A stretch of 64,000 nt of DNA from Methanomassiliicoccaceae archaeon. Its GTDB lineage: Archaea > Thermoplasmatota > Thermoplasmata > Methanomassiliicoccales > Methanomassiliicoccaceae. The translations under genes and the position numbers were made by a program. Position 1 is the stretch's first letter. Each line of letters opens with the position of its first letter. The notes below the pieces were generated by a model. That model saw nothing but the letters and a program-made list of their open reading frames with translations, was not told where the DNA came from and did no database searches. Shown here piece by piece: positions 38,530 to 51,431 of this stretch. The stretch spans positions 320,001 through 384,000 of the forward strand of contig JAXGZN010000002.1 in the NCBI GenBank assembly GCA_040776945.1. The letters are read 5' to 3'.

Positions 38530-40593
38530 TTAGTACAAGCGGCGGGACCTCATCAGGACGATCAGCACGGCGGCAAGCACTCCGAAGATGGCCGCGCCGC
38601 CGACGATGATCATATCCTGGCCGATCCCCGCTCCCTCGGAGGACGCCTTGGCCTTGACGGTGAGGATGGCGCTCCGCTCCGCGGTGAGGCCGTCGGCCAT
38701 GACCGCCAGCACCGCTATCTTGTGGCTCCCCTCGGTGAGGCCCGTGATGTCGTATCCGGCGGCATCGCTTCCCAACGTTGCGACGACATGATCGTCCACC
38801 AGCACCTCGATGCGGTCAACCTCGGCCCCGGAAGCGCTGAAGACCCAGGTCAGCCGAACGGCATCGCCGACCGAGTACGAAGGGCTCAGGGGGCCCAACA
38901 TCAAGGACACGCTTCCGAGGGGGCCGTCCGGCCAGCCCCCGGATGCCGCGGTGAATGAGGTCATGTTCTGACCCCAGCGGCCGTCGGCGTCCATGGCCCA
39001 GATGGTCACGCGGTGCTCCCCGGCGCTCAGTCCGATGAAGGTGACGGACCTGAGGGCCGGATCGACCGTCCTGTTCTCCTCCCCGTCCAGGGAGGCGCGG
39101 AGTTCGGCGATGCCCGACATCGAGGTCACTTGGAACGGGACAGTGGCGGTGGTGGACGGGTACGCTCTCCCCGGTTCGGAGAAGGTGATCACCGGGTCCA
39201 TGGTCTCGATCGCTATGACCTCGGTCCTCTCGCTCTCGATGTTGCCGGCCCGGTCGGTGGAGTAGTACCGAACCAGGTGAGCACCGCCATTGGAGATGGT
39301 GACCTCCCCGGCATAGCGGGTCCAGGCGCTGGAATCGACCCGATAGTACGTCGAATCGACGCCCGATCCCTCGTCCACCGGGGTCAGCGAGAACGTGGCG
39401 GGGCCAGCGTAGGTGCTCTCGCCAACGCTGTCGCCGCTCACCGAGATGTCGGTTGCCGGAGCGGCGGTGTCCACCACGGTATAGGCTTCAGGCTCGGACC
39501 TCATGGCCTCGTTCTCCCCGTTCACGTCGAATCCCTGGGTGAAGAACTCGTACCTTCCGTCGGCCGGTGCGGTGAACGATATCGGGCTCGAGTAATGGTT
39601 CCCGCCGTACATGGTCCATCCGCCGCTGCTCCCCTGCCGGTAGTAAAGGTTGACATGGTCGAACGGCACGGAGGGCTGGTTCACGGTGAAGCCGATCTTG
39701 AACGTACGGGAGCCCTGCGCTGAGGCCAGGTTGTCCACGCTTGTGCTCACCGGAACGTTGCCGGGTGCGTCCGACCCGGTGACGATTATGTCATCAAGGT
39801 AGACGCCCTCCCTCATGCCGCCGTTGATGATGCGGACTCCTTGGGCGGCGAAGGCGTCGTCGGCGTCGCCGCCCTCCGGAGCAATGGTCCCGGACACGAA
39901 CTCGAAGCCGATGGCATCGATATCGTTGGGCACACCGATGCTCACATGGATCCATGTCCTAGCCGAGGCCTGGAACTCGCTGTCCGTCCACAGGACCCTT
40001 TTGGTCGCGGGGTCATTGCGGTCGGTCCAATAGAGCACGTTCAGGAAGTCGTACCCCACGCTCTCGCCGGTCAAGGGCTGCTTGGCGTCCGAGGCCCCGG
40101 TGTCGGACCAGAACCAGAAGCTGAGGGTCACGGTGCTGAAGGCGGACGCTCCGACCACCGCCTTCTTCATTATGGAGTCCTGGCCGGTATCGTACCTCGG
40201 CACCCACTGGGACTGGGGCGTGGTGCCCGGAAGGCCGGTGACATTGACGTTCCATGCCTGGGTGTATCCTATGTTGCCGTCGGCCTGGGTGACCGGGACA
40301 AGATAATGGCTGTTGTACCCGGTCCTGGACGCGTAGATGGCGTGGGCGCTATTGAGCAGATTGTGCGCGGAGCGGCACCAATAGTCCTCATTGACCATGC
40401 CGCCGGCGGCGTCCTTGTTCAGATCGAACCGTTGCCAGCTCGCGTCCCATTCAGCGTAGGTCGCTTGTTCCGCGTCCTCCCGGAGGAGGACCGCGGACGC
40501 CGGCGCTGCGGACGTGTTCACGGGCACGGACGTCAGGACAAGGAGCGAGAGCAGGACCAGTGTGCAGGCGGCGGTCAGCCTTTGACGGAGCAT
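38530..40593 (-). CDS. Cell-surface protein: signal peptide, beta-sandwich/Ig-like domains, C-terminal TM anchor
   Basis: N-terminal signal, DTAAP and YYSTDRAGN.E Ig-like motifs, hydrophobic tail followed by RSRR. Confidence 0.85.
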   Translation of the reverse strand: MLRQRLTAACTLVLLSLLVLTSVPVNTSAAPASAVLLREDAEQATYAEWDASWQRFDLNKDAAGGMVNEDYWCRSAHNLLNSAHAIYASRTGYNSHYLVPVTQADGNIGYTQAWNVNVTGLPGTTPQSQWVPRYDTGQDSIMKKAVVGASAFSTVTLSFWFWSDTGASDAKQPLTGESVGYDFLNVLYWTDRNDPATKRVLWTDSEFQASARTWIHVSIGVPNDIDAIGFEFVSGTIAPEGGDADDAFAAQGVRIINGGMREGVYLDDIIVTGSDAPGNVPVSTSVDNLASAQGSRTFKIGFTVNQPSVPFDHVNLYYRQGSSGGWTMYGGNHYSSPISFTAPADGRYEFFTQGFDVNGENEAMRSEPEAYTVVDTAAPATDISVSGDSVGESTYAGPATFSLTPVDEGSGVDSTYYRVDSSAWTRYAGEVTISNGGAHLVRYYSTDRAGNIESERTEVIAIETMDPVITFSEPGRAYPSTTATVPFQVTSMSGIAELRASLDGEENRTVDPALRSVTFIGLSAGEHRVTIWAMDADGRWGQNMTSFTAASGGWPDGPLGSVSLMLGPLSPSYSVGDAVRLTWVFSASGAEVDRIEVLVDDHVVATLGSDAAGYDITGLTEGSHKIAVLAVMADGLTAERSAILTVKAKASSEGAGIGQDMIIVGGAAIFGVLAAVLIVLMRSRRLY

Positions 40594-41116: not shown

Positions 41117-42499
41117 CTACGGCAGGTCCAGCCCCAGTAGCCTGAGGGTGTCGCACGCCGAGTCGTAGATCTTTAGGTGCTCCTTGGTCGGGAGCACGGT
41201 CTTCACGTTGTAGCACTCCTGGAACGTTCTTCCCTGGGGGGCGGTGAGATAGCGCCGCTCATAGCCGCGGACGATCTTGTGGACCATCCTGTTCACCTCG
41301 TCCACGCTCATGCCCGCCGCCAGGGTGGCGACCTCGCCGAGCATGCGCGCCTCCATTCCCGTGGTGTAGTCCTCCAGCACGCCCTTGGCGGACGCGCAGC
41401 CCGATAAAAGCTCTCGCCCGCTGGCGGTGTCCAGGAGCGCCTGGGCGGCGATCTCGTGCAGGCACATCTCGGTGCACGGGCCGGAGATGGTGTAGAACTG
41501 GTTAGCGATCAGCAGGTCCGTGTTCGCGTCGATCGCGGCGGCAGAGTGGCCGGCGACCTGCAGCGTCTCCCGTGAGGTGGTCATACCCCAGCGTATGTGT
41601 ATGGGGCCAGATAGGTGATAGCTGGCGTTGAGCAGGGTGAACGAGGCCAAGGTGGTCGCCACGTCGCAGATGGCCGTCTCCTCGATTCCGCCTATGTAGC
41701 CGCCGAGGATCGGCATCTGCTCAACCATGATAACGTTCCCGTTGTGGAGCCAGCCGGAGATCATCACCAGGCTCATGTTGTCGATCTTCAGCTCGTTGAG
41801 CTGAGACACCTCGTGGCTGTCGGTCGGCTTCATGCCGTCCTTGCCATCACAAGCGAGACGCCCCGCTGCGGACAGCGGTGTCTCAGGTCCCTATATGGCC
41901 ATGTATGGTCGTCCGGCCCGGTTGCACGCTTCCCGCACCGCCCTTATCTCGGCGAGCGTGGCCTTGATCTCGAACGGCGTGTTGGTGCTCGACGGGATCC
42001 CCCCGACCGTGGCCATGACTCCGTTGACAAGGGTGTCCACGACCGGCTCCTGGGCGTAGCTCTGCATCATTGGCACGAACACGTCCTCGGAGACCGTGGC
42101 CCCGGTCGGCCCGCCCTGGATGACCGGCTTCTTCGGAGCATTGGCCCGGCGGGGCTCCAGGACCACCTTCTCCCCGTACTCTCCCAGCTGTATGCGCTTG
42201 GGAGCCCCTCTGATTCCCGCCTTGACCTCGTCCTCTGTGACCCTTATGACGCGCTGGGTATCGACGTTGAGGATGCCGACCGATACCAGCATCTCCATTC
42301 CCGCCTGGAACAGCCTCTTCTTCAGGTCAGGGTCCACCGGGATGAACTTATCTCCAAAGTCCAGCTGGTACTTCTCTTTGAGTTCCGCCGCGGCGTCGGG
42401 CACGGTCTTGTTGTCCCATACGTTCTCGGTGGTCATGGGACCCCGCTCCGAGCGCAGGTAGGTCTCATAGACGGTCAATGCCTTCTCGATCGACGCCAA
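41117..42499 (-). CDS. mtmB: Monomethylamine:corrinoid methyltransferase 2 (Pyl at in-frame TAG 41891-41893)
   Basis: ORFs 41891..42565 and 41117..41833 are in one frame; RPYMAI-TAG-GPE. Likely TTG start 42499 after GGAGAG puts Pyl at codon 203. The terminal codon is also TAG. Confidence 0.93.
41855..41884 (-). promoter_or_regulatory. Candidate Pyl-insertion stem-loop downstream of mtmB2 UAG
   Basis: GAGAC-A-CCGCTG-TCCG-CAGCGG-GGC-GTCTC, starting 6 nt after UAG; identical to the copy in mtmB1. Confidence 0.6.
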
Positions 42500-42519
42500 A
42501 GTTGCTCTCTCCAATGCTC

Positions 42520-43161
42520 TCACATCATCAGCGCGTTGACCCTCTGGACCACCATGGACCCGCACTCACAGTACGCGTCACCGCCGATGTTCTCCACCCA
42601 CTTGCTGGTGCAGCAGGCGCCACCGAATATGGTCTTAACATTGAAAAGTTTTTCTTCCTTGAGACGCTCGATGATCTTCCTCTGGCCGACTAGGGTGGTG
42701 GTCATGAGCGCCGAGGCTCCGACGATGCTGGCGTTCATCTCCTTCGCCGCCTGGGTGAACAGGTGAGGGGGAACGTCCTTTCCTAAGTCATATACCAGGA
42801 ACCCGGCGCTCCTAAGGAACGCGGACACAACGTGCTTCCCGATCTCATGTATGTCCCCCTCCACGGTCCCTATGACCACCACGCCCTTGGACGGGATTTT
42901 CTCCTCGCCCATATGCCTCTCGTAGATGTTGATGGCCTGGGACATCGCCTGGGACGCGGCCAGGACCTGGGGCAAGAACATCCTGCCCTCGTTGAACATG
43001 TCGCTTATCTCCGCCATGCCCGCGCCGAGCCCCTTCTCGATGGCTTCCGCCGGACTGATGCCCATCCGCACCGCCTCCGTGGCGGCAGACACAGCCAACT
43101 TCTTATCGTATCTCATCACTGCCTCTTTCAATAAGGCCAGTATCTCGTCCTTGCTTCTCAA
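42520..43161 (-). CDS. mtmC: Methylamine corrinoid protein 2
   Basis: MFLPQVL, GDIHEIGK (DxHxxG) and SALMTTT motifs; TTG start after GGAGGAG; directly upstream of mtmB2. Confidence 0.9.
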   Translation of the reverse strand: MRSKDEILALLKEAVMRYDKKLAVSAATEAVRMGISPAEAIEKGLGAGMAEISDMFNEGRMFLPQVLAASQAMSQAINIYERHMGEEKIPSKGVVVIGTVEGDIHEIGKHVVSAFLRSAGFLVYDLGKDVPPHLFTQAAKEMNASIVGASALMTTTLVGQRKIIERLKEEKLFNVKTIFGGACCTSKWVENIGGDAYCECGSMVVQRVNALMM

Positions 43162-43338: not shown

Positions 43339-44976
43339 TCACGCCTCTCCGCTCTCACCGGCCCTAAGTATCTTGATCTTCATCACATGCTCCGGGCATA
43401 CCAGCTCGCAGCGCTTGCACGCCGTCCCCAAGCATAGGTCGGACCGGACCCTGACGCGGGGCACATCGCCGTCGACGATGACCAGGGCCTTCTCGGGGCA
43501 GGACGCCTCGCACTTGCGGCACAGGATGCATCCATCGAGCTTTCCGGTGAGCACGGTACCCGGGTCCCGGAGCACGGTGATCCCCAGCTCCCCGAGGTCG
43601 GGGATGTCCCGGCTGACCTTCCTCTCGACCATGGCCTCCACCGGCTCAAGCCGCAGATGCGGCAGCGAATAGATGTCCAGCATGTCATTGTACGACGCCA
43701 TCGGCATGCCGTAGGACCACAGGGAAAGCTCGATGGAGTAGAGGTTCTTGAAGGTCTCCGAGGTCGCGAACATGCAGTGGGTCGCCCGGAGCTTCTTCGC
43801 GAACTCTCTCAGCTCGTCCAGGTCCTTTCTCCCGGTGGTGATGTCGCGGGCCATGGCCAGGGATGTGTTCCCATACTGAATTATCCTGGTCGAGCCCGGC
43901 GACACCATCCCCACCCGCTGGGCCTTCCCGGCGTCGACGTACAGCCCGGACGCGCCGGACATGAACGAGGTCGGCACGTCGTCCACCCATATGCCCGCTT
44001 CCCTCATCAGCGTGAGGTAGCCGGAGCGCAGGGCGCCGATGGCCTTCCCTGCCTCGGCCACGTCCCCCTCGGTGATGAAAACGCCGTCCTGCAGATGCAC
44101 CCTTGCGTCCGGCGTGGTGATGCGGGGCAGCCGGACGAGCCCGCTCCGCAATCCGCAGTCCAGGGCCGCCACCACCCCGGTACCGGTGATGCCCTTGGCC
44201 CGGCTGTGCATCTCCCCTCTCGCCTTCAGACCTCCGTTCTCCGGTGCGATCACGTCGCCCCGCCTAGCCTCGTAACCCTCGTCGAGGACCCAGCACTCCC
44301 AGCCGTCCTCGGTGATGTTGGCGTCCGAAATCGTCCCCGGAGCGGCTAGCATGCCCATCTCGATTTGCTGCCCCTCCAGAGCCGGCCCGGCGGCGGCCGA
44401 GCCCGAATAGATCTCGCCGTCCTTGATCAGCGCCATCTCCGCGTTGGTGCCATAGTCGATGACCAGGCACGGCTCCTCCTGCTCCAACGCCCCAGTCATG
44501 AGCAGCATCGCCAGAGCGTCCGCTCCGATCTCGTGCCCGACCGCCGGAGGTATGATCACCGAGGCGTCGCCTATCAGCCCCAGGCCGAGCTCGGCGGCGC
44601 CCACGATATCACCGTCCCTCTTAGGAGGGACGACCTTGAGCGTCTCTAGCATCCGCTTTCCGGCGTACGCCAGGTCACGGATCTCTATCTTCTGGAAGAG
44701 CGAGAGCTGGAACGGGTTCCCGCATACCCCTAAGGTGGTGACCTTTCCCAGATCGACCTTCAGGAGAGGGAACAGCCTGGAGACCGTATCGATGATGAGC
44801 CGGTTCGCCTCGTCCTCGCCCGCGTCAATGGCGAAGTTGATGTGGTCGATGACGTTCGAGCCGGGAATGGGATGCCTCGAGGTTATGGCGGTGGAGATGG
44901 TCCTGCCGTCAGCTAGGTCGATGGCCTGTGCCCGGAACCCGCTGGTCCCCAGGTCGAGAGCGATCCCCAGCGGCAT
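43339..44976 (-). CDS. ramA: Methylamine corrinoid protein reductive activase
   Basis: LDLGTSGFR, DYGTNAE and SAAAGPALEGQ motifs plus a C-terminal 2x[4Fe-4S] domain (CILCRKCEASCP, CLGTACKRCELVCP); TGATG overlap with pylD. Confidence 0.93.
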   Translation of the reverse strand: MPLGIALDLGTSGFRAQAIDLADGRTISTAITSRHPIPGSNVIDHINFAIDAGEDEANRLIIDTVSRLFPLLKVDLGKVTTLGVCGNPFQLSLFQKIEIRDLAYAGKRMLETLKVVPPKRDGDIVGAAELGLGLIGDASVIIPPAVGHEIGADALAMLLMTGALEQEEPCLVIDYGTNAEMALIKDGEIYSGSAAAGPALEGQQIEMGMLAAPGTISDANITEDGWECWVLDEGYEARRGDVIAPENGGLKARGEMHSRAKGITGTGVVAALDCGLRSGLVRLPRITTPDARVHLQDGVFITEGDVAEAGKAIGALRSGYLTLMREAGIWVDDVPTSFMSGASGLYVDAGKAQRVGMVSPGSTRIIQYGNTSLAMARDITTGRKDLDELREFAKKLRATHCMFATSETFKNLYSIELSLWSYGMPMASYNDMLDIYSLPHLRLEPVEAMVERKVSRDIPDLGELGITVLRDPGTVLTGKLDGCILCRKCEASCPEKALVIVDGDVPRVRVRSDLCLGTACKRCELVCPEHVMKIKILRAGESGEA

Positions 44977-45833
44977 CAGATGGCCTCCATCCACACCGCT
45001 CTGCCCTCTAGCAGAGGGGCGCGCGGCAGGGACAGACTGGCGCTCCAAACCGCCATCACCGAAACTCCGATCTGCAGGGGATCGTGCACCAGCGTCGCCA
45101 TCTTGCGGATGCCGATCTCGTCGAAGGAGAAAGGCATCCCCGGGGACGATACCACGCATCCTTGCTGGACCCACTCCCCTGGTATCCTAGCCGGTGAAGC
45201 GTTCAATATGAGGTCGTGACCCTTGACTGCCTCCATCAGGTCATCGCAGACCGTGAACTCCCTGAACTTCGATCTCAGGGCTTCCGCCTTGGAGCGATCG
45301 ACGTCGACCACCGTGACCTTCGCGCCATTCCTCGCCAGCAGCTCGGCCGAACAGCTCCCGACCCGTCCAGCGCCGATCAGCAGGACGTCCCTGCCTCTCA
45401 GGCCGCCGGCGGCCTCCCGCAGGGCGGTGAAGTAGCCAAGAGCGGTGGACCTGATGTTGTTGACGGCCCGCCGGGCCCGGCAATTGATCGCCAGGAACTC
45501 GTTGTCGTCGGCCATGAAGATGAGGTCGGCCCCGGACCCCAGCGCCTCGCCGAGGCCGGCAACGTCGGTCTCCTCGGTGACATATGCCTTCGGCCCAAGG
45601 TGCTCGACGATGGCGCAGACCGATTCCGAGAAGCCCGCGGTCGCGCCGAGGCCAGCGGTGACAGGGACGCACGCGGCCGTAAGGCCCTCCATGTCCAGTT
45701 CGTGGAGGTCTATCCCCACGGAGGTGTAGGCAAGCTCCTTCATGGTCATTCCCAGGGCCCTGGCGAGGGACGAGTCCCGCCCCTGTGAGGAGGATGGCAC
45801 GTCCCTGATCATCTCCGGCGTAAGTCTGGTCAT
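44976..45833 (-). CDS. pylD: Pyrrolysine synthase (dehydrogenase)
   Basis: MTRLT, VPVTAGLG...GFS, FMADD, IGAGRVG and HDPLQIGV motifs; position in the pyl operon. Confidence 0.93.
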   Translation of the reverse strand: MTRLTPEMIRDVPSSSQGRDSSLARALGMTMKELAYTSVGIDLHELDMEGLTAACVPVTAGLGATAGFSESVCAIVEHLGPKAYVTEETDVAGLGEALGSGADLIFMADDNEFLAINCRARRAVNNIRSTALGYFTALREAAGGLRGRDVLLIGAGRVGSCSAELLARNGAKVTVVDVDRSKAEALRSKFREFTVCDDLMEAVKGHDLILNASPARIPGEWVQQGCVVSSPGMPFSFDEIGIRKMATLVHDPLQIGVSVMAVWSASLSLPRAPLLEGRAVWMEAI

Positions 45834-46987
45834 CAGATAACCTCCTCTGAACCCTCGAGACCCTCGGCGCGCGCGATCTCCCGGATGCACCTGGTCCTCT
45901 TCTCCCTGACGAGCTCAGAAGTGCTGCCGGAGAACATCAGCGTCCCCCTCCAGCTCCTTGCTCCGGGCCTGTGATCGGTCATCGCGTCATCAGCGCCGAA
46001 AAGGCCAGGAGCTATCCTGGGGGATCGGACCTCGGCGAACCCCCTCTCTCCGCACGACCGCATGCGGCCATCGTCGGCGGCGATGTGCTCGTAGACCGAC
46101 GCGCCCTGCCTGACGGGGCCGGCATCCTCCAAGCGGCCATGGACCAGCGCTCCCACCAGCCGCTCCAGGAGATTGACTCCGGTAGCGTGGTATACCGCCG
46201 CGGGGGTCTGGCTGGGGATCCGCGCGTCGATCTCCAGCACCTTTGGGACGCCGCCGCACACGATGGCCTCAACGTCCATGATGCCCCGGAGCCCCATCCC
46301 TTCCGCGATCTTCCTCGCGATGCCGGCGAAGGCAGCCTCGACCGAAGGTTCCAGCCCCTCAGGGGGGCAGCGGACCATGCGGCAGTCGTACCCTGCGTCC
46401 AGAACAACCTCGGTGATCACCATGGGCACCGCCCGAGCTCCGTCCCCGATGACCTCGATGGAGATGTTCGGCCCTTCCACGAACTCCTGGACTATGGGCT
46501 CCTCACCCAGCGCCCTGACCGCCTCAATGCCCATCTCCAGCTCCTCCGGCCCGCTCGCCTTCGCCACCCCTACGCTCCCGCTCTGCCCGGAGGGCTTCAC
46601 CACCACGGGGAAGCCGCAGTTCGGCCAGGGTGACGGAACAGGGACCCCCATCCGCTCGAACAGCTGATTGGAGTGCAGCTTGGACGACGAGATCTCGTAG
46701 GCCCTCATATCGAAGAGAAGGGGCGTTTCCAGCTCTCGGAACATATCGCTCAGGCATATGAGCGCAGCGTAGTTTTCGTTGGCCGGGAGGACGGCATCGC
46801 AATCCTCCAGGACCTTGGCCGCCCGTCCGCGTTCCAAGGTCACGTCCAGAACGACAGCCTCGTCCGCCAGCGACAGAGCGGGGGCGTCCGTTCGGCGGTC
46901 CACCACGAGGGTCTCATAGCCCGCCTTCCGGGCCAGATAGGCGGCTTCCATCCCCTGCAGGGCCCCTCCCACGATGCCAAGCTTCAT
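45833..46987 (-). CDS. pylC: 3-methylornithine--L-lysine ligase (ATP-grasp)
   Basis: GGALQGMEAAYLA, VKPSGQSGSVGV and LEIDARIPSQTP motifs. Confidence 0.95.
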   Translation of the reverse strand: MKLGIVGGALQGMEAAYLARKAGYETLVVDRRTDAPALSLADEAVVLDVTLERGRAAKVLEDCDAVLPANENYAALICLSDMFRELETPLLFDMRAYEISSSKLHSNQLFERMGVPVPSPWPNCGFPVVVKPSGQSGSVGVAKASGPEELEMGIEAVRALGEEPIVQEFVEGPNISIEVIGDGARAVPMVITEVVLDAGYDCRMVRCPPEGLEPSVEAAFAGIARKIAEGMGLRGIMDVEAIVCGGVPKVLEIDARIPSQTPAAVYHATGVNLLERLVGALVHGRLEDAGPVRQGASVYEHIAADDGRMRSCGERGFAEVRSPRIAPGLFGADDAMTDHRPGARSWRGTLMFSGSTSELVREKRTRCIREIARAEGLEGSEEVI

Positions 46988-48087
46988 GTCCTGACCCCCC
47001 TGTCCGCGGCCTTCCAGTTCTCTACCAGCGACGAGTAGGCGGAAGGCATCGCCATCCTGAGACCCAAGCCGTCCAGGATCTCCTCTACCTGAGGGACCGT
47101 CCGTCCGCCGGCCTCGATATCTAGGTCATGCTGCGCCACCCCGGCCAGACCGTGGCTGGGAGGTATTATCGAAGTGATGACATTGGCCCCCGCCACCAGC
47201 CTGGACCGTAGGCCGCCGATCCCCTCAACGTCCAGGCTCGCCGGTATCAGCCGGTCGGGGTACATCAACCTCATTATCGCTATGGCTGTCAGCTCATCTC
47301 GGAACAGGGCATGGTCGCGCTCGGCCATGGGCGTATTGCTCTGGGGAACGAACCCCATCGCCCTCACCTGCCGGACGCCCAGCTCGCCCATGATCTGGAC
47401 CGATCTTGCTCGATCGGCCGCGGTCTCCCCCACGCCGACCATGATCCCCTCCTCGGCCAGCATCCCGGAGTTCATCGCCCATTTCTTCTGGGCGAGCCTC
47501 GTGTCATAATCCTGCCCCGGCCGGAGGAAGGAGAACAGGGCGCGGTTATGTGTTTCCTGGTAGCAGGCGAACCAGTCCCCTCCGGCCTGCCTGAGCCTGG
47601 GGAACACCTCCTGGGGGACAACGCCCGGAGAGACCATCAGGGGAACCTCGACCGCATCGTTCACCCTCTGCACAAGGTCCACGAGATTGGAGCAATCGCC
47701 CCCCTGGTGCATATGAGGGTCCTCCCCCATGGTGAGGTCGACCAGATGCACCCCGGAGTCCTCAAGGGCGGTGGACAGGTCAATGATCTCCTCCAGGGTC
47801 TTGCGGTACCTTACGCTATGGTGGTTCGTGCTGCGATAGAAGCAGAACGAGCAGTTGTTGCGGCAGTAGGTCGAGAAGTACACGAACCCGTAGCAGAACA
47901 CCGCACTGCCGAAGTGCCTCTCCTTGACCTCCCTGGCCGCAGCGAACAGGTCGTCCAGCAGGGTCTGGTCCTTGATCGAGAAGAGAACCTCAAGGTCCTC
48001 TGCAGACGCTTTCGACCCATTCTTCAGACCGGATATCAATTCCTGCGCGCGGCAGGCGTCCGGTGAGCTCCGCCCCCTATATGTCAA
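46984..48087 (-). CDS. pylB: 3-methylornithine synthase (radical SAM)
   Basis: YGFVYFSTYCRNNCSFC, LTMGED, YQETHN, IPASLDVEG and GANVITSIIP motifs. No ATG near the start: TTG 48087 (overlapping the pylS end) or TTG 48039. Confidence 0.93.
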   Translation of the reverse strand: MTYRGRSSPDACRAQELISGLKNGSKASAEDLEVLFSIKDQTLLDDLFAAAREVKERHFGSAVFCYGFVYFSTYCRNNCSFCFYRSTNHHSVRYRKTLEEIIDLSTALEDSGVHLVDLTMGEDPHMHQGGDCSNLVDLVQRVNDAVEVPLMVSPGVVPQEVFPRLRQAGGDWFACYQETHNRALFSFLRPGQDYDTRLAQKKWAMNSGMLAEEGIMVGVGETAADRARSVQIMGELGVRQVRAMGFVPQSNTPMAERDHALFRDELTAIAIMRLMYPDRLIPASLDVEGIGGLRSRLVAGANVITSIIPPSHGLAGVAQHDLDIEAGGRTVPQVEEILDGLGLRMAMPSAYSSLVENWKAADRGVRT

Positions 48088-48904
48088 GGCGGGCCCCCCG
48101 CAAGTACATGAGGCTTCGCCCAACCTTCTTGATGTTGCTAGCTCCGGTCTTCACCATGAGCAGGCGTTCCAGTCCATAACCGGCTCCCACCCAGGCATCG
48201 GTAATCCCATGAGCGCCATCGAGCCTGTGGGGCCCACATGCCGCCGAGGCCACCTCGATCCCGTTGACTTCCACGTCCAGAGTGTCGCCGTATACCTCGG
48301 AATCGGTGGTGCACAGTTCGTAGTCCAGACCGACGGTCCTCATTATAAGGTCGATATGCGCCCTAAGGCAGGTCATGGGATCGCCTTCCGGGGCCATCTC
48401 CACCAGGTTGAGCATGGTGAACTCCTCGAGATGGTCTGAGCCGCGGCTCTCCTTCCGATAGCAGGTCCCGATCTCGAACATGCGCAGGGGCATCTTCGCC
48501 GTGCGCTTCAGATGACGCATCAAGAAATACAGGTTCGGGGCGAGCATAGGTCGGAGGCAGCGCCCCTCGTCCAGCCAGAACACCTGGTGATGAAGAGGGT
48601 GCGAATCGTCGATCCCCATCTTGGACAGCGCTCTTGAGGAGATTATGGTCGGGGTCCTGACCTCGAGGAAACCGTTGCTGATGAGAGCATGAGCGAGGAC
48701 CTCCTCCAAGTGGGCCAATCGGTCCCGCTCGGGCCGTTTCTGAACATACCTTATCTCCTTCCGGTTGGCGGCCTGGTGATGCGCAACCTCAACAGCGAAC
48801 GCCTCATCCCGTTCCTCGCTGGTCTCGAACCTCTTGATCACATCAGGGGTCCCGCCGAGCTCCCTCAGCCTCTGCTTCTGAGATGACGTCCACTCAATGG
48901 CCAT
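48077..48904 (-). CDS. pylS: Pyrrolysyl-tRNA synthetase lacking the N-terminal domain
   Basis: 275 aa; QKQRLREL, LRPMLAPNLY, YRKESRGSDHLEEFTMLN and GAGYGLERL motifs; ends in TAG. Confidence 0.97.
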   Translation of the reverse strand: MAIEWTSSQKQRLRELGGTPDVIKRFETSEERDEAFAVEVAHHQAANRKEIRYVQKRPERDRLAHLEEVLAHALISNGFLEVRTPTIISSRALSKMGIDDSHPLHHQVFWLDEGRCLRPMLAPNLYFLMRHLKRTAKMPLRMFEIGTCYRKESRGSDHLEEFTMLNLVEMAPEGDPMTCLRAHIDLIMRTVGLDYELCTTDSEVYGDTLDVEVNGIEVASAACGPHRLDGAHGITDAWVGAGYGLERLLMVKTGASNIKKVGRSLMYLRGARLDI

Positions 48905-48946: not shown

Positions 48947-49018
48947 TGGCGAAGTGCCCGGGAGTCGAACCCGGCTGCCGCGGCTGTAGAGGCCTGGTGG
49001 TCGCCGGACCAACACTCC
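48947..49018 (-). tRNA. pylT: tRNA-Pyl (anticodon CUA)
   Basis: GGAGTGT T GGTC CGGC GACC A CCAGGC CT CTA CA GCCGCGG CAG CCGGG TTCGACT CCCGG GCACTTC G CCA: folds as a cloverleaf with a 4-nt D loop, 3-nt variable loop, G discriminator and encoded CCA. Confidence 0.97.
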
Positions 49019-49199: not shown

Positions 49200-49400
49200 A
49201 AGAATGTGAATGATAATATAAAGACTTTTTGCCTTATCGTTGGCCATCAAAATAATACATATTTAAAATTATCTTTTTTTCCTTTTATATGGCATTAAAA
49301 TGTTATATAAAGTTTGTTACTCGATACTATTGTTTTATATACATAATTAGCAATAGGTAGGTTAGCCATTAATATTTTGAATAATGGCATATTCGGAGGA
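49200..49400. promoter_or_regulatory. AT-rich divergent promoter region for the pyl operon (-) and mtmC1B1 (+)
   Basis: TATA-like boxes at ~49215-49222 (minus strand TTTATATT preceded by an A-rich BRE-like run), 49303-49311 and 49333-49341 (plus strand). Confidence 0.65.
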
Positions 49401-49406
49401 TACAGA

Positions 49407-50045
49407 ATGAGCAACAAAGCTGAAATACTGGGACGTCTCAAGAAATCCGTAGAGACTTGGGACGTCAAGTTGGCCGAATCGGCGGCAAAAGAGGCTTTGG
49501 CGGCCGGGATCGAGCCGGGAGAGGCTGTGGAGAAGGGCCTTGGAAAGGGCATGGAGACCATCAGCAACCTGTTCGATGACGCCAAGATCTTCCTGCCCCA
49601 GGTTCTGGCCGCGTCCCAGGCCATGGAGAAGGCGCTGAAGATCTTCGAGCCGGCCATGACCAAGGGAAAGTCCGCGCTCAGGGGAACCGTGGTCATCGCC
49701 ACTGTTCTGGGCGACATCCACGAGATCGGGAAGAACGTGGTTGCGGCCATGCTGAAGGGCGCTGGATACAATGTGATCGACCTTGGCAGAGATGTAGCTC
49801 CAGAGAAGTTCGTGGAGGCGGCCAAGGAGAACAATGCCGATGTGGTAGGTGCCTCTGCGCTGATGACCACCACGGTAGTCGTTCAGAAGGACATCGTTGA
49901 AATGCTCAAGGCAGAGAAGGTCAAAGTGAAGACGATCTTCGGAGGCGCTCCTGCCAACGAGGAATGGGTCCAGAGCATCGGCGGGGACAAGTACTGCCCA
50001 TCTGGCGCCGAGGCGGTTGAGATGGTCAACGCTCTAGTGGGGTGA
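49407..50045 (+). CDS. mtmC: Methylamine corrinoid protein 1
   Basis: IFLPQVL, GDIHEIGKN and SALMTTT motifs; GGAGG RBS before ATG 49407. Confidence 0.93.
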   Translation: MSNKAEILGRLKKSVETWDVKLAESAAKEALAAGIEPGEAVEKGLGKGMETISNLFDDAKIFLPQVLAASQAMEKALKIFEPAMTKGKSALRGTVVIATVLGDIHEIGKNVVAAMLKGAGYNVIDLGRDVAPEKFVEAAKENNADVVGASALMTTTVVVQKDIVEMLKAEKVKVKTIFGGAPANEEWVQSIGGDKYCPSGAEAVEMVNALVG

Positions 50046-50051
50046 TATGAA

Positions 50052-51431
50052 ATGGCACTTGCAAGACCACTATCAGTCTTTGATGTGTACGACCGCTTCA
50101 TGAAGGGCAAGAAGGTCACCGAAGCGGAGTGGGACTACCAGATCATACCCACCAACGCGGCGGCGATGAAGAAGAAGTACAACATCAAGTTCGGCAAGGA
50201 AATGATCCCCGAGGACAAGGATCTGAAGAACCGGCTGTTCCAGGCTGGAATGGAGATGCTGGTCACCACCGGGTTCTACAACTCCGATCTCGGCCGTGTC
50301 ATGAACATAACCGAGGAAGAAATCCGGGAAGGGATTAAGAAGACCCCCACCAAGCTTCTCCTGGGAGAGTACCGTGACGCAGCCAGGTTCGAGCCCAGGC
50401 ACGGCAACGACAGGAGAAAACCGATCATCCAGGGAGGGCCGACCGGAGCGCCTGTCTCTGAGGAAGTGTTCGTCCAAGTCATGCAGAGCTACGCCCAGGA
50501 GGCTACTGTAGATACCCTGGTGAACGGCGTCATGGCCACCATCGAAGGCCACAGCGCTACCACCAACACTCCATGGGAGATCAAGGCGGAGCTCGCAGAG
50601 CTCAGGGCAGTGAGGGAGGCCAGAATAAGGGCCGGACGACCATACATGGCCATATAGGGACCTGAGACACCGCTGTCCGCAGCGGGGCGTCTCGCTACGA
50701 ACCTTCTTGGCGGGCTGAGGCCTTGTGACTCCCACGAGTGCTCGCAGCTCAATGAACTAAAGATAGACATGGCAGCCCTCAACATGCTTTCCGGATGGAT
50801 CCTCAACGGGGATACCATCATGATCGAGCAGATGCCGATCTTCGGGGGGTACTGCGGAGGGGTCGAGGAAACTGCCATCTGCGATGTGGCCACCCACCTG
50901 GCGTCGTTCACCCTGTTCAACGGGAACTTCCACCTGGACGGTCCGATCCACATCCGCTGGGGCATCACCACTTCTCGGGAGACGCTGCAGATCGCCGGCC
51001 ACGTGGCCGCCGCGGTCGATGCGAACACCGACCTGTTGATCGCCAACCAGTACTACCCCATATCGGGTCCCTGCACCGAGATGTGTCTACTCGAGACGGC
51101 CGCTCAGGCCATGGTGGACACTGCCTCCGGTCGGGAACTGCTGTCCGGGTCCGCGGCCGCCAAGGGCGTGGCCATGGACAAGACCACCGGTATGGAAGCC
51201 AGGATCATGGGCGAAGCTTCGATTGCGACCTGTGGCATGAAGATCTCCGACGTCAACGAGATACTCGAGAAGCTGGTCAGCTCCTACGAGGGCAACTACC
51301 ACAAGCCTCCTGCCGGCAAGCGCTTCCAGGAGTGCTATGACGTCAATACCGTCAAGCCCACCGACGAGTACCTGAAGGTCTACGACAACGTTGTCAAGAC
51401 CCTGAGGGACCTCGGCCTAGCGATCAAGTGA
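50052..51431 (+). CDS. mtmB: Monomethylamine:corrinoid methyltransferase 1 (Pyl202, TAG 50655-50657)
   Basis: In-frame TAG at codon 202, the same position as Pyl202 of Methanosarcina MtmB; GPE, SHE, IEQMP and NQYY motifs follow. Confidence 0.96.
50664..50693 (+). promoter_or_regulatory. Candidate Pyl-insertion stem-loop downstream of mtmB1 UAG
   Basis: GAGAC/GTCTC and CCGCTG/CAGCGG stems with a UCCG loop, starting 6 nt after UAG. Confidence 0.6.

Follow-up and report, generated by a model that had tools for sequence, protein, structure and literature searches.

The pyrrolysine locus and its two mtmB genes

We analysed a 64,000-nt stretch of the genome of a Methanomassiliicoccaceae archaeon (assembly GCA_040776945.1, contig JAXGZN010000002.1, positions 320,001 to 384,000; hereafter the window, whose coordinates are used for all features). 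It contains two monomethylamine methyltransferase genes, mtmB1 and mtmB2, each with an in-frame UAG codon for pyrrolysine (Pyl). Around this codon the two genes share a block of 68 nt that includes a hairpin just 3' of the UAG, and this block and its hairpin are the subject of our analysis. The genome (2.17 Mb, 99.84% complete; G000 in our comparisons) has its entire pyrrolysine cassette within the window, with the gene order mtmB2 (-), corrinoid protein, RamA-like activase, pylD, pylC-like gene, pylB-like gene, synthetase core, pylT, mtmB1 (+), Amt-family transporter, and histidine kinase (Table 1). Within the cassette (44976..48904), PylD_N is the sole family-specific Pfam match and the remaining names were inferred from domain or position. 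In the whole genome there are two mtmB genes, mtmB1 and mtmB2, which form an inverted pair around the cassette, 8.2 kb apart. The genes mtbB and mttB were also sought in this genome and neither was found; monomethylamine may be its sole methylamine substrate, and its known Pyl proteins may be limited to the two MtmB.

Table 1 Position of the mtmB genes, the shared block, the hairpin, and the pyl cassette in the window.
Feature	Position	Strand	Basis or remark
mtmB1, monomethylamine methyltransferase	50052..51431	+	459 aa; in-frame TAG is codon 202; PF05369, 798.5 bits
mtmB2 open reading frame	41117..42565	-	part homologous to mtmB1 is 41120-42496; TAG as final stop; PF05369, 737.3 bits
68-nt block, mtmB1 copy	50629..50696	+	
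68-nt block, mtmB2 copy	41852..41919	-	
Upstream 26 nt of the block	50629..50654	+	gene-conversion flank; unconserved between species except the -1 ATA
-1 ATA codon, mtmB1	50652-50654	+	
-1 ATA codon, mtmB2	41894-41896	-	
Pyl codon UAG, mtmB1	50655..50657	+	
Pyl codon UAG, mtmB2	41891..41893	-	
mtmB1 hairpin, 30 nt	50664..50693	+	minimum-free-energy and centroid structure; site-specific synonymous constraint
P1 of mtmB1 hairpin	50664-50668 with 50689-50693	+	
P2 of mtmB1 hairpin	50670-50675 with 50680-50685	+	
UCCG loop of mtmB1 hairpin	50676-50679	+	
Internal loop (1x3) of mtmB1 hairpin	A50669 opposite GGC 50686-50688	+	
mtmB2 hairpin	41855..41884	-	same sequence as that of mtmB1
Distal 10-nt partner (GGUGUCUCAG), mtmB2 only, not mtmB1	41801..41810	-	predicted folding; can pair with 41877-41886 (hairpin 5' arm); corresponds to the PYLIS_1 outer stem
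Terminal TAG of mtmB2	41117..41119	-	where homologs end; no strong structure after it (-4.8 kcal/mol)
pylT, tRNA-Pyl, anticodon CUA	48947..49018	-	between both mtmB genes
Class II aminoacyl-tRNA synthetase core, presumably pylS	48077-48904	-	275 aa, adjoining pylT; domain and position
pylB-like radical SAM	46984-48123	-	Pfam; name from domain and position
pylC-like ATP-grasp	45833-46987	-	Pfam; name from domain and position
pylD	44976-45890	-	Pfam PylD_N

An identical block in divergent paralogs

Over 459 aligned codons, mtmB1 and mtmB2 are 68.2% identical in DNA and 62.7% identical in protein. The original prediction, made from the window sequence, described a perfectly identical block with abrupt edges in otherwise divergent genes, and direct comparison confirmed this description: the mtmB1 copy is the reverse complement of the mtmB2 copy at 68/68 bases, with sharp transitions upstream (AGA ATA AG vs. 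TGC AAC CG) and downstream (ACG AAC CTT vs. TGT GAT GGC). Outside the block, of 253 degenerate codons at which both genes encode the same residue, 143 (56.5%) also agree in codon; given this background, 20 such codons in succession have a probability of about 1e-5 per position. A Sawyer-type permutation gave a similar picture, as 0/2000 shuffles reached the observed run of 25 concordant polymorphic sites. The A/T-ending codons of the block do run against the bias of the genes, as had been noted, since in the long open reading frames of the genome CGT and CGA make up 6.5% and 7.2% of Arg codons, GCA and GCT 9.4% and 9.1% of Ala, ACA 7.3% of Thr, CCA 9.5% of Pro, and ATA 24% of Ile. Beyond the two mtmB copies, no further copy of the block was found in the 2.17-Mb genome.

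Assembly collapse had been named as one alternative origin of the identity. Contigs from metatranscriptome libraries, which serve here only to confirm sequence and bridging (DNA carry-over is possible and depth cannot rank genes), bridge the mtmB1 block with its unique flanks in 3/4 runs with 0 differences, and the block is therefore not an assembly collapse. In the fourth run the contigs break within the shared block, as expected of assembly across a repeat. The mtmB2 block is bridged by no contig among those listed.

A hairpin at fixed distance from the UAG codon

The hairpin that had been described from the sequence (5 + 6 bp, a 1x3 internal loop, and a UCCG loop) was recovered by folding as both the minimum-free-energy and the centroid structure, at -17.2 kcal/mol. 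It starts 6 nt past the UAG, and the block ends 3 nt beyond it. Its 5' arm, GAGAC, pairs with GUCUC from the Arg213-Leu214 codons 25 nt downstream. A pseudoknot between the UCCG loop and an upstream CGGA was considered and dropped, as that Gly codon varies (GGA 17, GGC 14 of 35). A terminator or attenuator was dropped on inspection, as no conserved T-run follows the hairpin.

For comparisons across species we distinguished Methanomassiliicoccaceae (f1), a second family (f3), and Methanomethylophilaceae (f7), and two mtmB paralog types (type 1 and type 2). At E <= 1e-100, mtmB was detected in 116 of 201 genomes of the order (18/23 in f1, 9/47 in f3, and 88/114 in f7), and genes were taken from 61 of these 116, comprising all f1 found, 8 f3, and 33 f7. 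The f7 sample is non-random, being drawn from the upper part of the match list with tandem pairs favoured. This yielded 111 non-redundant mtmB genes, of which 108 include the UAG region and 102 are full length, among them 44 from f1 and f3. The UAG-to-hairpin spacer measures 6 nt in 108/108 sequences.

Constraint at silent sites in two families

Codon choice within the hairpin is nearly frozen in the 44 f1 and f3 genes, with GAG205 in 44/44, CCG207 in 40/43, CTG208 in 41/44, GCG211 in 43/44, CGT213 in 44/44, and CTC214 in 42/44, while the tetraloop codon TCC209 occurs in 39/42. At Ala210, GCA or GCG is found in 39/41 genes (GCA 32, GCG 7, GCT 2); both pair with U16 of the hairpin, and GCC and GCT together account for 58% of Ala codons genome-wide. 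Parsimony on a tree of the flanking sequence counted 0 changes at CGT213 and GAG205, 1 at GCG211, 2 each at CTC214, CTG208, and CCG207, and 3 at the loop codon TCC209. Ala210 underwent eight synonymous changes, and its pair was preserved in all but two. Elsewhere in the gene, 115 conserved 4/6-fold columns show 15.2 changes on average (5-95%: 10-20). The unpaired third positions of codons 203, 204, 206, 212, and 215, which lie in the spacer, the internal loop, and the 3' flank, show 8-14.

Each of these five unpaired positions has a higher codon entropy than any of the eight that are paired or in the loop (exact p = 1/1287), and the six lowest of the gene's conserved 4/6-fold columns all lie within the hairpin. 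A window-permutation test for a synonymous dip in f1 and f3 returned 0/5000, so that the dip that the original prediction had proposed to look for is present at the hairpin (0-3 changes vs. a mean of 15.2). Several of the frozen codons oppose genome codon bias, and the rare CGT213 is kept because its U pairs with A9 of the 5' arm. A second constrained stretch was sought across mtmB and none was seen. Taken together, the comparison indicates that the hairpin is under RNA-level purifying selection in Methanomassiliicoccaceae and f3.

Structure and strand across the order

To describe structure in each group, we compared folding over the 42 nt after the UAG with that of synonymous recodings (recoding z). 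Mean values were -2.3 for type 1 (19 genes) and -1.6 for type 2 (13 genes) in f1, -2.7 and -2.6 in f3 (12 genes), and -1.6 for type 1 in f7 (32 genes). With the register fixed, pairing is seen in 87.2% of 1067 cells, vs. 32-61% with a slid partner. There are 18 distinct interiors that keep P1 and depart from the reference at no fewer than two stem positions; 17/18 of them fold better than 300 synonymous recodings (z < -1.64 in 14/18; mean z -2.42). These variants span roughly eight lineage groups, some with changed residues (PLTTGG, PLSEAA, PLSVGG). Structural support takes the form of register-shifted alternative stems in place of compensatory double substitutions, and by this comparison the hairpin is kept with altered interiors in much of Methanomethylophilaceae. 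In f7 type-1 mtmB, we also observed that the codon after the UAG is GGA in 34/34 genes, the lowest-entropy 4-fold column of that clade; it is free in f1 and f3.

An inverted repeat is the same on both strands and long antisense open reading frames overlap the region, so the constrained molecule might be DNA, as a cruciform or a palindrome bound by protein, or else an antisense transcript. We regard this as very improbable. Among 97 distinct sequences, the helices contain 35 U:G and 11 G:U cells; read from the opposite strand or as DNA, all 46 would be A:C mismatches, which points to the sense RNA as the target of selection. The purine-only third base at Ala210 likewise fits U:R pairing in the sense RNA, and the constraint is limited to 30 nt.

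As neither mtbB nor mttB was found in G000, the comparison with other Pyl genes was made in relatives. The mtbB genes of the order (21 genes) tend to carry hairpins 3-5 nt after the UAG (-12 to -22.6 kcal/mol), in modest excess over synonymous recodings (mean z -1.42; below -1.64 in 6/21). In a contig search, we considered the best 80 of 393 mtmB loci and inspected 7 of these 80; all of the 80 are Methanomassiliicoccales-like except one contig of Candidatus Hydrothermarchaeum profundi, which belongs to another phylum. Its mtmB is 68% identical to mtmB1 and has a 10-bp version of the hairpin in the same place, which suggests gene transfer together with the element. Contigs in Eggerthellaceae and Bacteroides ovatus bins carry Methanomethylophilaceae-like mtmB with an in-frame TAG and are probably mis-binned archaeal contigs.

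Gene conversion between the paralogs

The claim of RNA-level selection had extended to about 26 nt upstream of the UAG, and here it was not supported: with 10-19 synonymous changes on the tree, codons 194-197 are no more constrained than the rest of the gene. Codons 198-200, which failed the residue-conservation filter of the tree count, show normal codon-choice variation. Nonetheless, these 26 nt match between paralogs of the same genome in G000, G002, and G023. On a tree of the 102 full-length genes, from which codons 190-220 were left out, the mtmB1 and mtmB2 clades split before the divergence of f1 and f7, and the identity of the block is therefore not a leftover of a young duplication.

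We compared concordant runs between type-1 and type-2 genes at 829 polymorphic sites, within genomes and in 110 between-genome pairs. Within genomes, the runs at the Pyl site reach 25 sites in G000, 26 in G002, 28 in G023, and 16 in G022 (permutation p <= 0.0095), and between genomes their median is 8 and their maximum 18. Both G002 paralogs differ from both G000 paralogs by three shared silent changes. The upstream sequence of G000 is present in the type-2 orthologs of G005 and G006 and is not found in the type-1 genes of G005, G006, and G010, which identifies type 2 as the donor in the G000/G002 lineage, with later events following. From column frequencies, the G000 paralogs would be identical by chance at the five free silent hairpin sites with a probability of about 0.013, and the conversion tract therefore spans the whole block. 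By these comparisons, the identity of the upstream 26 nt and of the unpaired silent sites of the hairpin comes from gene conversion between the paralogs.

It could be argued that conversion, or an artefact, is the entire explanation and that no RNA selection is involved; the demonstrable conversion does account for the upstream 26 nt and the five free silent sites. We consider this highly unlikely. A within-genome process cannot limit the paired sites to 0-2 changes in 44 genes from two families when their neighbours show 8-14, the paralog clades are older than the f1/f7 divergence, and the mtmB1 block, unique flanks included, is found again in independent RNA-library contigs. The interleaved variable sites also argue against the orthologs being recent transfers of one allele. 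Conversion, offered originally as an alternative that would replace selection, thus occurs, and it acts together with selection. Selection holds about 36-40 nt near-identical in inverted paralogs that are otherwise 68% identical. As the only long identical stretch between the two genes, this core probably nucleates short-tract conversion, and conversion has recently homogenised the upstream 26 nt and the free silent hairpin sites in G000. A selected RNA element that gives the sole long identity is likely to be the reason for the recurrent site of conversion, with the seeding step itself a matter of inference.

The inverted-repeat arms formed by the two genes measure 431 and 306 nt and are 77-78% complementary (41334-42157 and 50391-51214). 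Recombination between the inverted mtmB genes would flip the pyl cassette. Beside the cassette lie two open reading frames of 687 aa (38530-40593, -) and 192 aa (49295-49873, -) that have no Pfam match at E <= 1e-5.

A proposed role in decoding UAG as pyrrolysine

We explain the 68-nt identity by a selected hairpin together with gene conversion, and in our view the hairpin most likely enhances the decoding of UAG as pyrrolysine, a reading that we favour with some, though by no means full, confidence. The two parts of this explanation differ in standing: selection on the sense-strand hairpin and recurrent conversion are shown by the comparisons across species, and the recoding role is suggested by the fixed 6-nt spacing, the homology to PYLIS (a structure proposed downstream of the UAG in Methanosarcina), and the reported effect of PYLIS replacement in M. 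barkeri. What we found is a stable structure at a fixed short spacing 3' of a recoded codon, conserved beyond what the protein needs. When the UAG occupies the A site of the ribosome, the 6-nt spacer brings the foot of the helix to about +13, counted from the first nucleotide of the P site. This position is the mRNA entrance and helicase site, and the geometry is that of known read-through and frameshift stimulators. The hairpin, which is a compact and locally closed relative of the Methanosarcina PYLIS, probably slows or biases the ribosome such that Pyl-tRNA(CUA), delivered by the ordinary elongation factor, outcompetes aRF1. The outcome would be a higher yield of full-length MtmB, with the hairpin as an enhancer and not an obligatory signal.

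Alternatively, the hairpin could be selected for a role other than recoding, such as mRNA stability or processing, a site for a regulatory protein or small RNA, or a pause that aids folding or maturation around Pyl. We consider this unlikely, while granting it a real chance. The constraint data show selection on RNA and are silent on its purpose; moreover, mttB decodes UAG with no such hairpin, many f7 mtmB copies do without it, its retention does not follow TAG-stop usage, and the loop sequence is fixed in f1 and f3 (TCC 39/42), as expected of a recognised motif. The distance to the UAG is, however, 6 nt in every lineage examined, even if the conserved protein leaves no indels there, and the mtbB genes of the order also tend to have hairpins 3-5 nt after the UAG. 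No conserved partner or second element was seen elsewhere in mtmB. In addition, the hairpin is homologous to the 5' part of PYLIS, and according to the available part of a review, replacement of PYLIS in M. barkeri mtmB1 led to less full-length and more truncated product (PMC2933860).

Several of our results weigh against an enhancer of UAG decoding that is maintained for its structure, starting with the statistics of folding. The single-sequence energy is not significant against dinucleotide shuffles (z -1.15; 33/200 shuffles as good), and the other single-sequence values are also non-significant (z -0.66, -1.40, and -1.56). The covariation check proposed at the outset found no classical covariation: on 42 f1 and f3 sequences, RNAalifold gives a consensus of P1 and four pairs of P2 in which 0 pairs are compensated (covariation term -0.03), and on 32 f7 or all 108 sequences it finds no consensus structure. 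In the fixed register both sides change at only three pairs (6 cells), and the covariation score is 0.080 vs. 0.072 for shuffles, with 10/500 shuffles reaching it. Sequence-specific recognition, and not structure, could account for part of the constraint in f1 and f3. For mtmB2 in a 108-nt context, the distal pairing is predicted at 0.88 vs. 0.10 for the local one. Among 102 genes, local pairing is predicted to dominate in 62 and distal pairing in 6, mtmB2 of G000 being one of the 6; the codons of the distal arm (Val230, Ser231) evolve freely.

The distribution of the hairpin counts against this reading as well. In f7, type-2 genes have a mean recoding z of -0.74 (26 genes), values in G029, G033, G047, and G127 are near 0, and no synonymous dip is detected (permutation p 0.82 and 0.19). 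The loss of the hairpin in several f7 lineages implies that it is dispensable. The mttB genes of the order show no comparable hairpin after the UAG (20 genes, mean z -0.81), so the hairpin is not a general Pyl signal. Within families, hairpin retention does not track TAG-stop usage, which was estimated from 100 kb sampled from each of 12 other genomes: the hairpin is intact in G012, G053, G079, and G093 at 1-5% TAG stops (5% in G012) and lost in G047 at 16%. In G097 (14% TAG stops) one hairpin copy is lost.

UAG as a stop codon and the context of the Pyl codon

TAG is an ordinary stop in about a fifth of genes in the organisms concerned. In G000 it ends about 18-23% of long open reading frames, matching the 22.9% that it makes up of stop trinucleotides, and back-up stops are not enriched nearby. 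Across the 12 other genomes the share ranges from 1% to 29%, with 22-29% in 4/5 f1 or f3 genomes and 1-5% in 5/7 f7 genomes. This contrast between families amounts to about two independent clades and establishes nothing on the relation of the hairpin to TAG usage. Eight of the 102 mtmB genes (mtmB2 and 7 others) end in TAG, none with a strong structure after it (-0 to -8 kcal/mol). One mtmB2 mRNA therefore holds a UAG read as Pyl plus a UAG that should stop.

With regard to the codon context, ATA precedes the UAG in f1 and f3 in 50/50 mtmB, 8/9 mttB, and 9/9 mtbB genes, three unrelated enzyme families. This may be a P-site effect or a -1 nucleotide context effect. In f7 type-1 mtmB, the -1 codon is GTN with the third base free. 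A genome scan for other in-frame TAG codons with a hairpin gave 1229 candidates, mostly antisense frames of G+C-rich sequence, and was abandoned because a filter on G+C at third codon positions was non-discriminating.

These observations raise the question of whether the hairpin and the P-site AUA of TAG-rich Methanomassiliicoccaceae form a context signal that gives UAG two meanings per cell, and even per mRNA, which we regard as doubtful. If true, the internal UAG of mtmB2 would be read as Pyl and the terminal one as a stop, an arrangement for which a 2024 preprint, in the part available, reports no validated mechanism (10.1101/2024.09.30.615893). A related reading, in which the hairpin and the fixed -1 AUA truly discriminate the two codons, possibly with a trans-acting factor in the manner of SECIS, seems to us improbable. 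It would be consistent with the TAG-stop shares of G000 and of 4/5 f1 and f3 genomes, with the eight mtmB genes that end in an unstructured TAG, with the near-invariant ATA (vs. 24% of Ile codons in G000), and with the strongest constraint being found in TAG-rich families. Against it stand the mttB genes of the same genomes, which have no such hairpin, the retention of the hairpin in G012 and its loss in G047 at the TAG-stop shares given above, and a family contrast that is about two independent clades deep. According to the available parts of the literature, moreover, Pyl-tRNA is served by the ordinary elongation factor and can do without PYLIS (PMC2933860, PMC9499178, bioRxiv 10.1101/2024.09.30.615893).

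For about twenty years it has been debated whether any signal in the mRNA aids the decoding of UAG as pyrrolysine. Here, in a second methanogen order, a 30-nt piece of the PYLIS region is among the most constrained silent stretches of the gene, and its constraint matches a hairpin base by base. Lineages that lack the hairpin, mttB, and the terminal TAG of the same mRNA provide natural controls; together with the constraint, the match to the hairpin, and the use of TAG as a stop, they make the question directly testable with a small element. There may also be a use in genetic-code expansion, in which PylRS/tRNA pairs come heavily from this order and efficiency is context-dependent.

Comparison with known systems

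The closest known relative is PYLIS, for which our Methanosarcina comparison rests on the Rfam model only. RF01982 (PYLIS_1) matches mtmB1 at 50.0 bits (E 4.7e-10) and mtmB2 at 63.7 bits (E 7.1e-14), with no match in the whole window at the gathering cut-off (70 bits). In both genes the alignment starts at the UAG and takes in model positions 1-100, and the hairpin is homologous to the 5' part of PYLIS. Shared features are the location directly 3' of the in-frame mtmB UAG, the homologous sequence, the 6-nt spacer, the GAGAC 5' arm, dispensability in some lineages, and absence from mttB. The structures differ, however. In the cmscan alignments, 7/15 model pairs are non-canonical in mtmB1 and 6/15 in mtmB2; the inner 7-bp hairpin of the model is not matched in either gene (3/7 pairs non-canonical in each), and of the 8-bp outer stem 4/8 pairs are non-canonical in mtmB1, whereas a perfect 10-bp distal pairing is predicted in mtmB2. 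The element described here is a 30-nt local hairpin, in contrast to a structure of roughly 80 nt with a 3' arm about 70 nt downstream.

Two reviews, in their available parts, describe PYLIS as non-essential and weakly conserved (PMC9499178, PMC2933860), which differs from the extreme silent-site conservation in f1 and f3. Borrel et al. 2014 (PMC3941956) does not mention PYLIS, a hairpin, or the word 'downstream'. We found no prior description of the hairpin in Methanomassiliicoccales in the literature, subscription journals and supplements lying outside our coverage.

Bacterial SECIS, too, is a hairpin inside a coding region, shortly 3' of a recoded stop, where both protein and RNA impose constraint. 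Decoding there requires the hairpin, which a dedicated elongation factor (SelB) recognises; for Pyl, no factor of this kind is known. The element of mtmB differs from it in that mttB has no hairpin (20 genes) and many mtmB copies have lost it; a dedicated factor was not searched for. Viral and cellular stimulators of read-through and -1 frameshifting place a stable helix about 5-9 nt 3' of the recoded codon, where it meets the mRNA entrance. They enhance and are not absolutely required, and they act with near-cognate tRNAs or tRNA slippage. Unlike in those systems, a dedicated suppressor tRNA (pylT) exists here.

With regard to the block as a whole, the pattern resembles concerted evolution by short-tract conversion: paralogs within a genome share derived silent changes, the edges are sharp, and the flanks follow the gene tree. 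It is unlike the usual case in that the tract is only about 70 nt long and has arisen repeatedly, in several lineages, at one and the same site. The mtmB pair would thus offer a clean example of a selected RNA element that seeds repeated micro-conversion between old paralogs.

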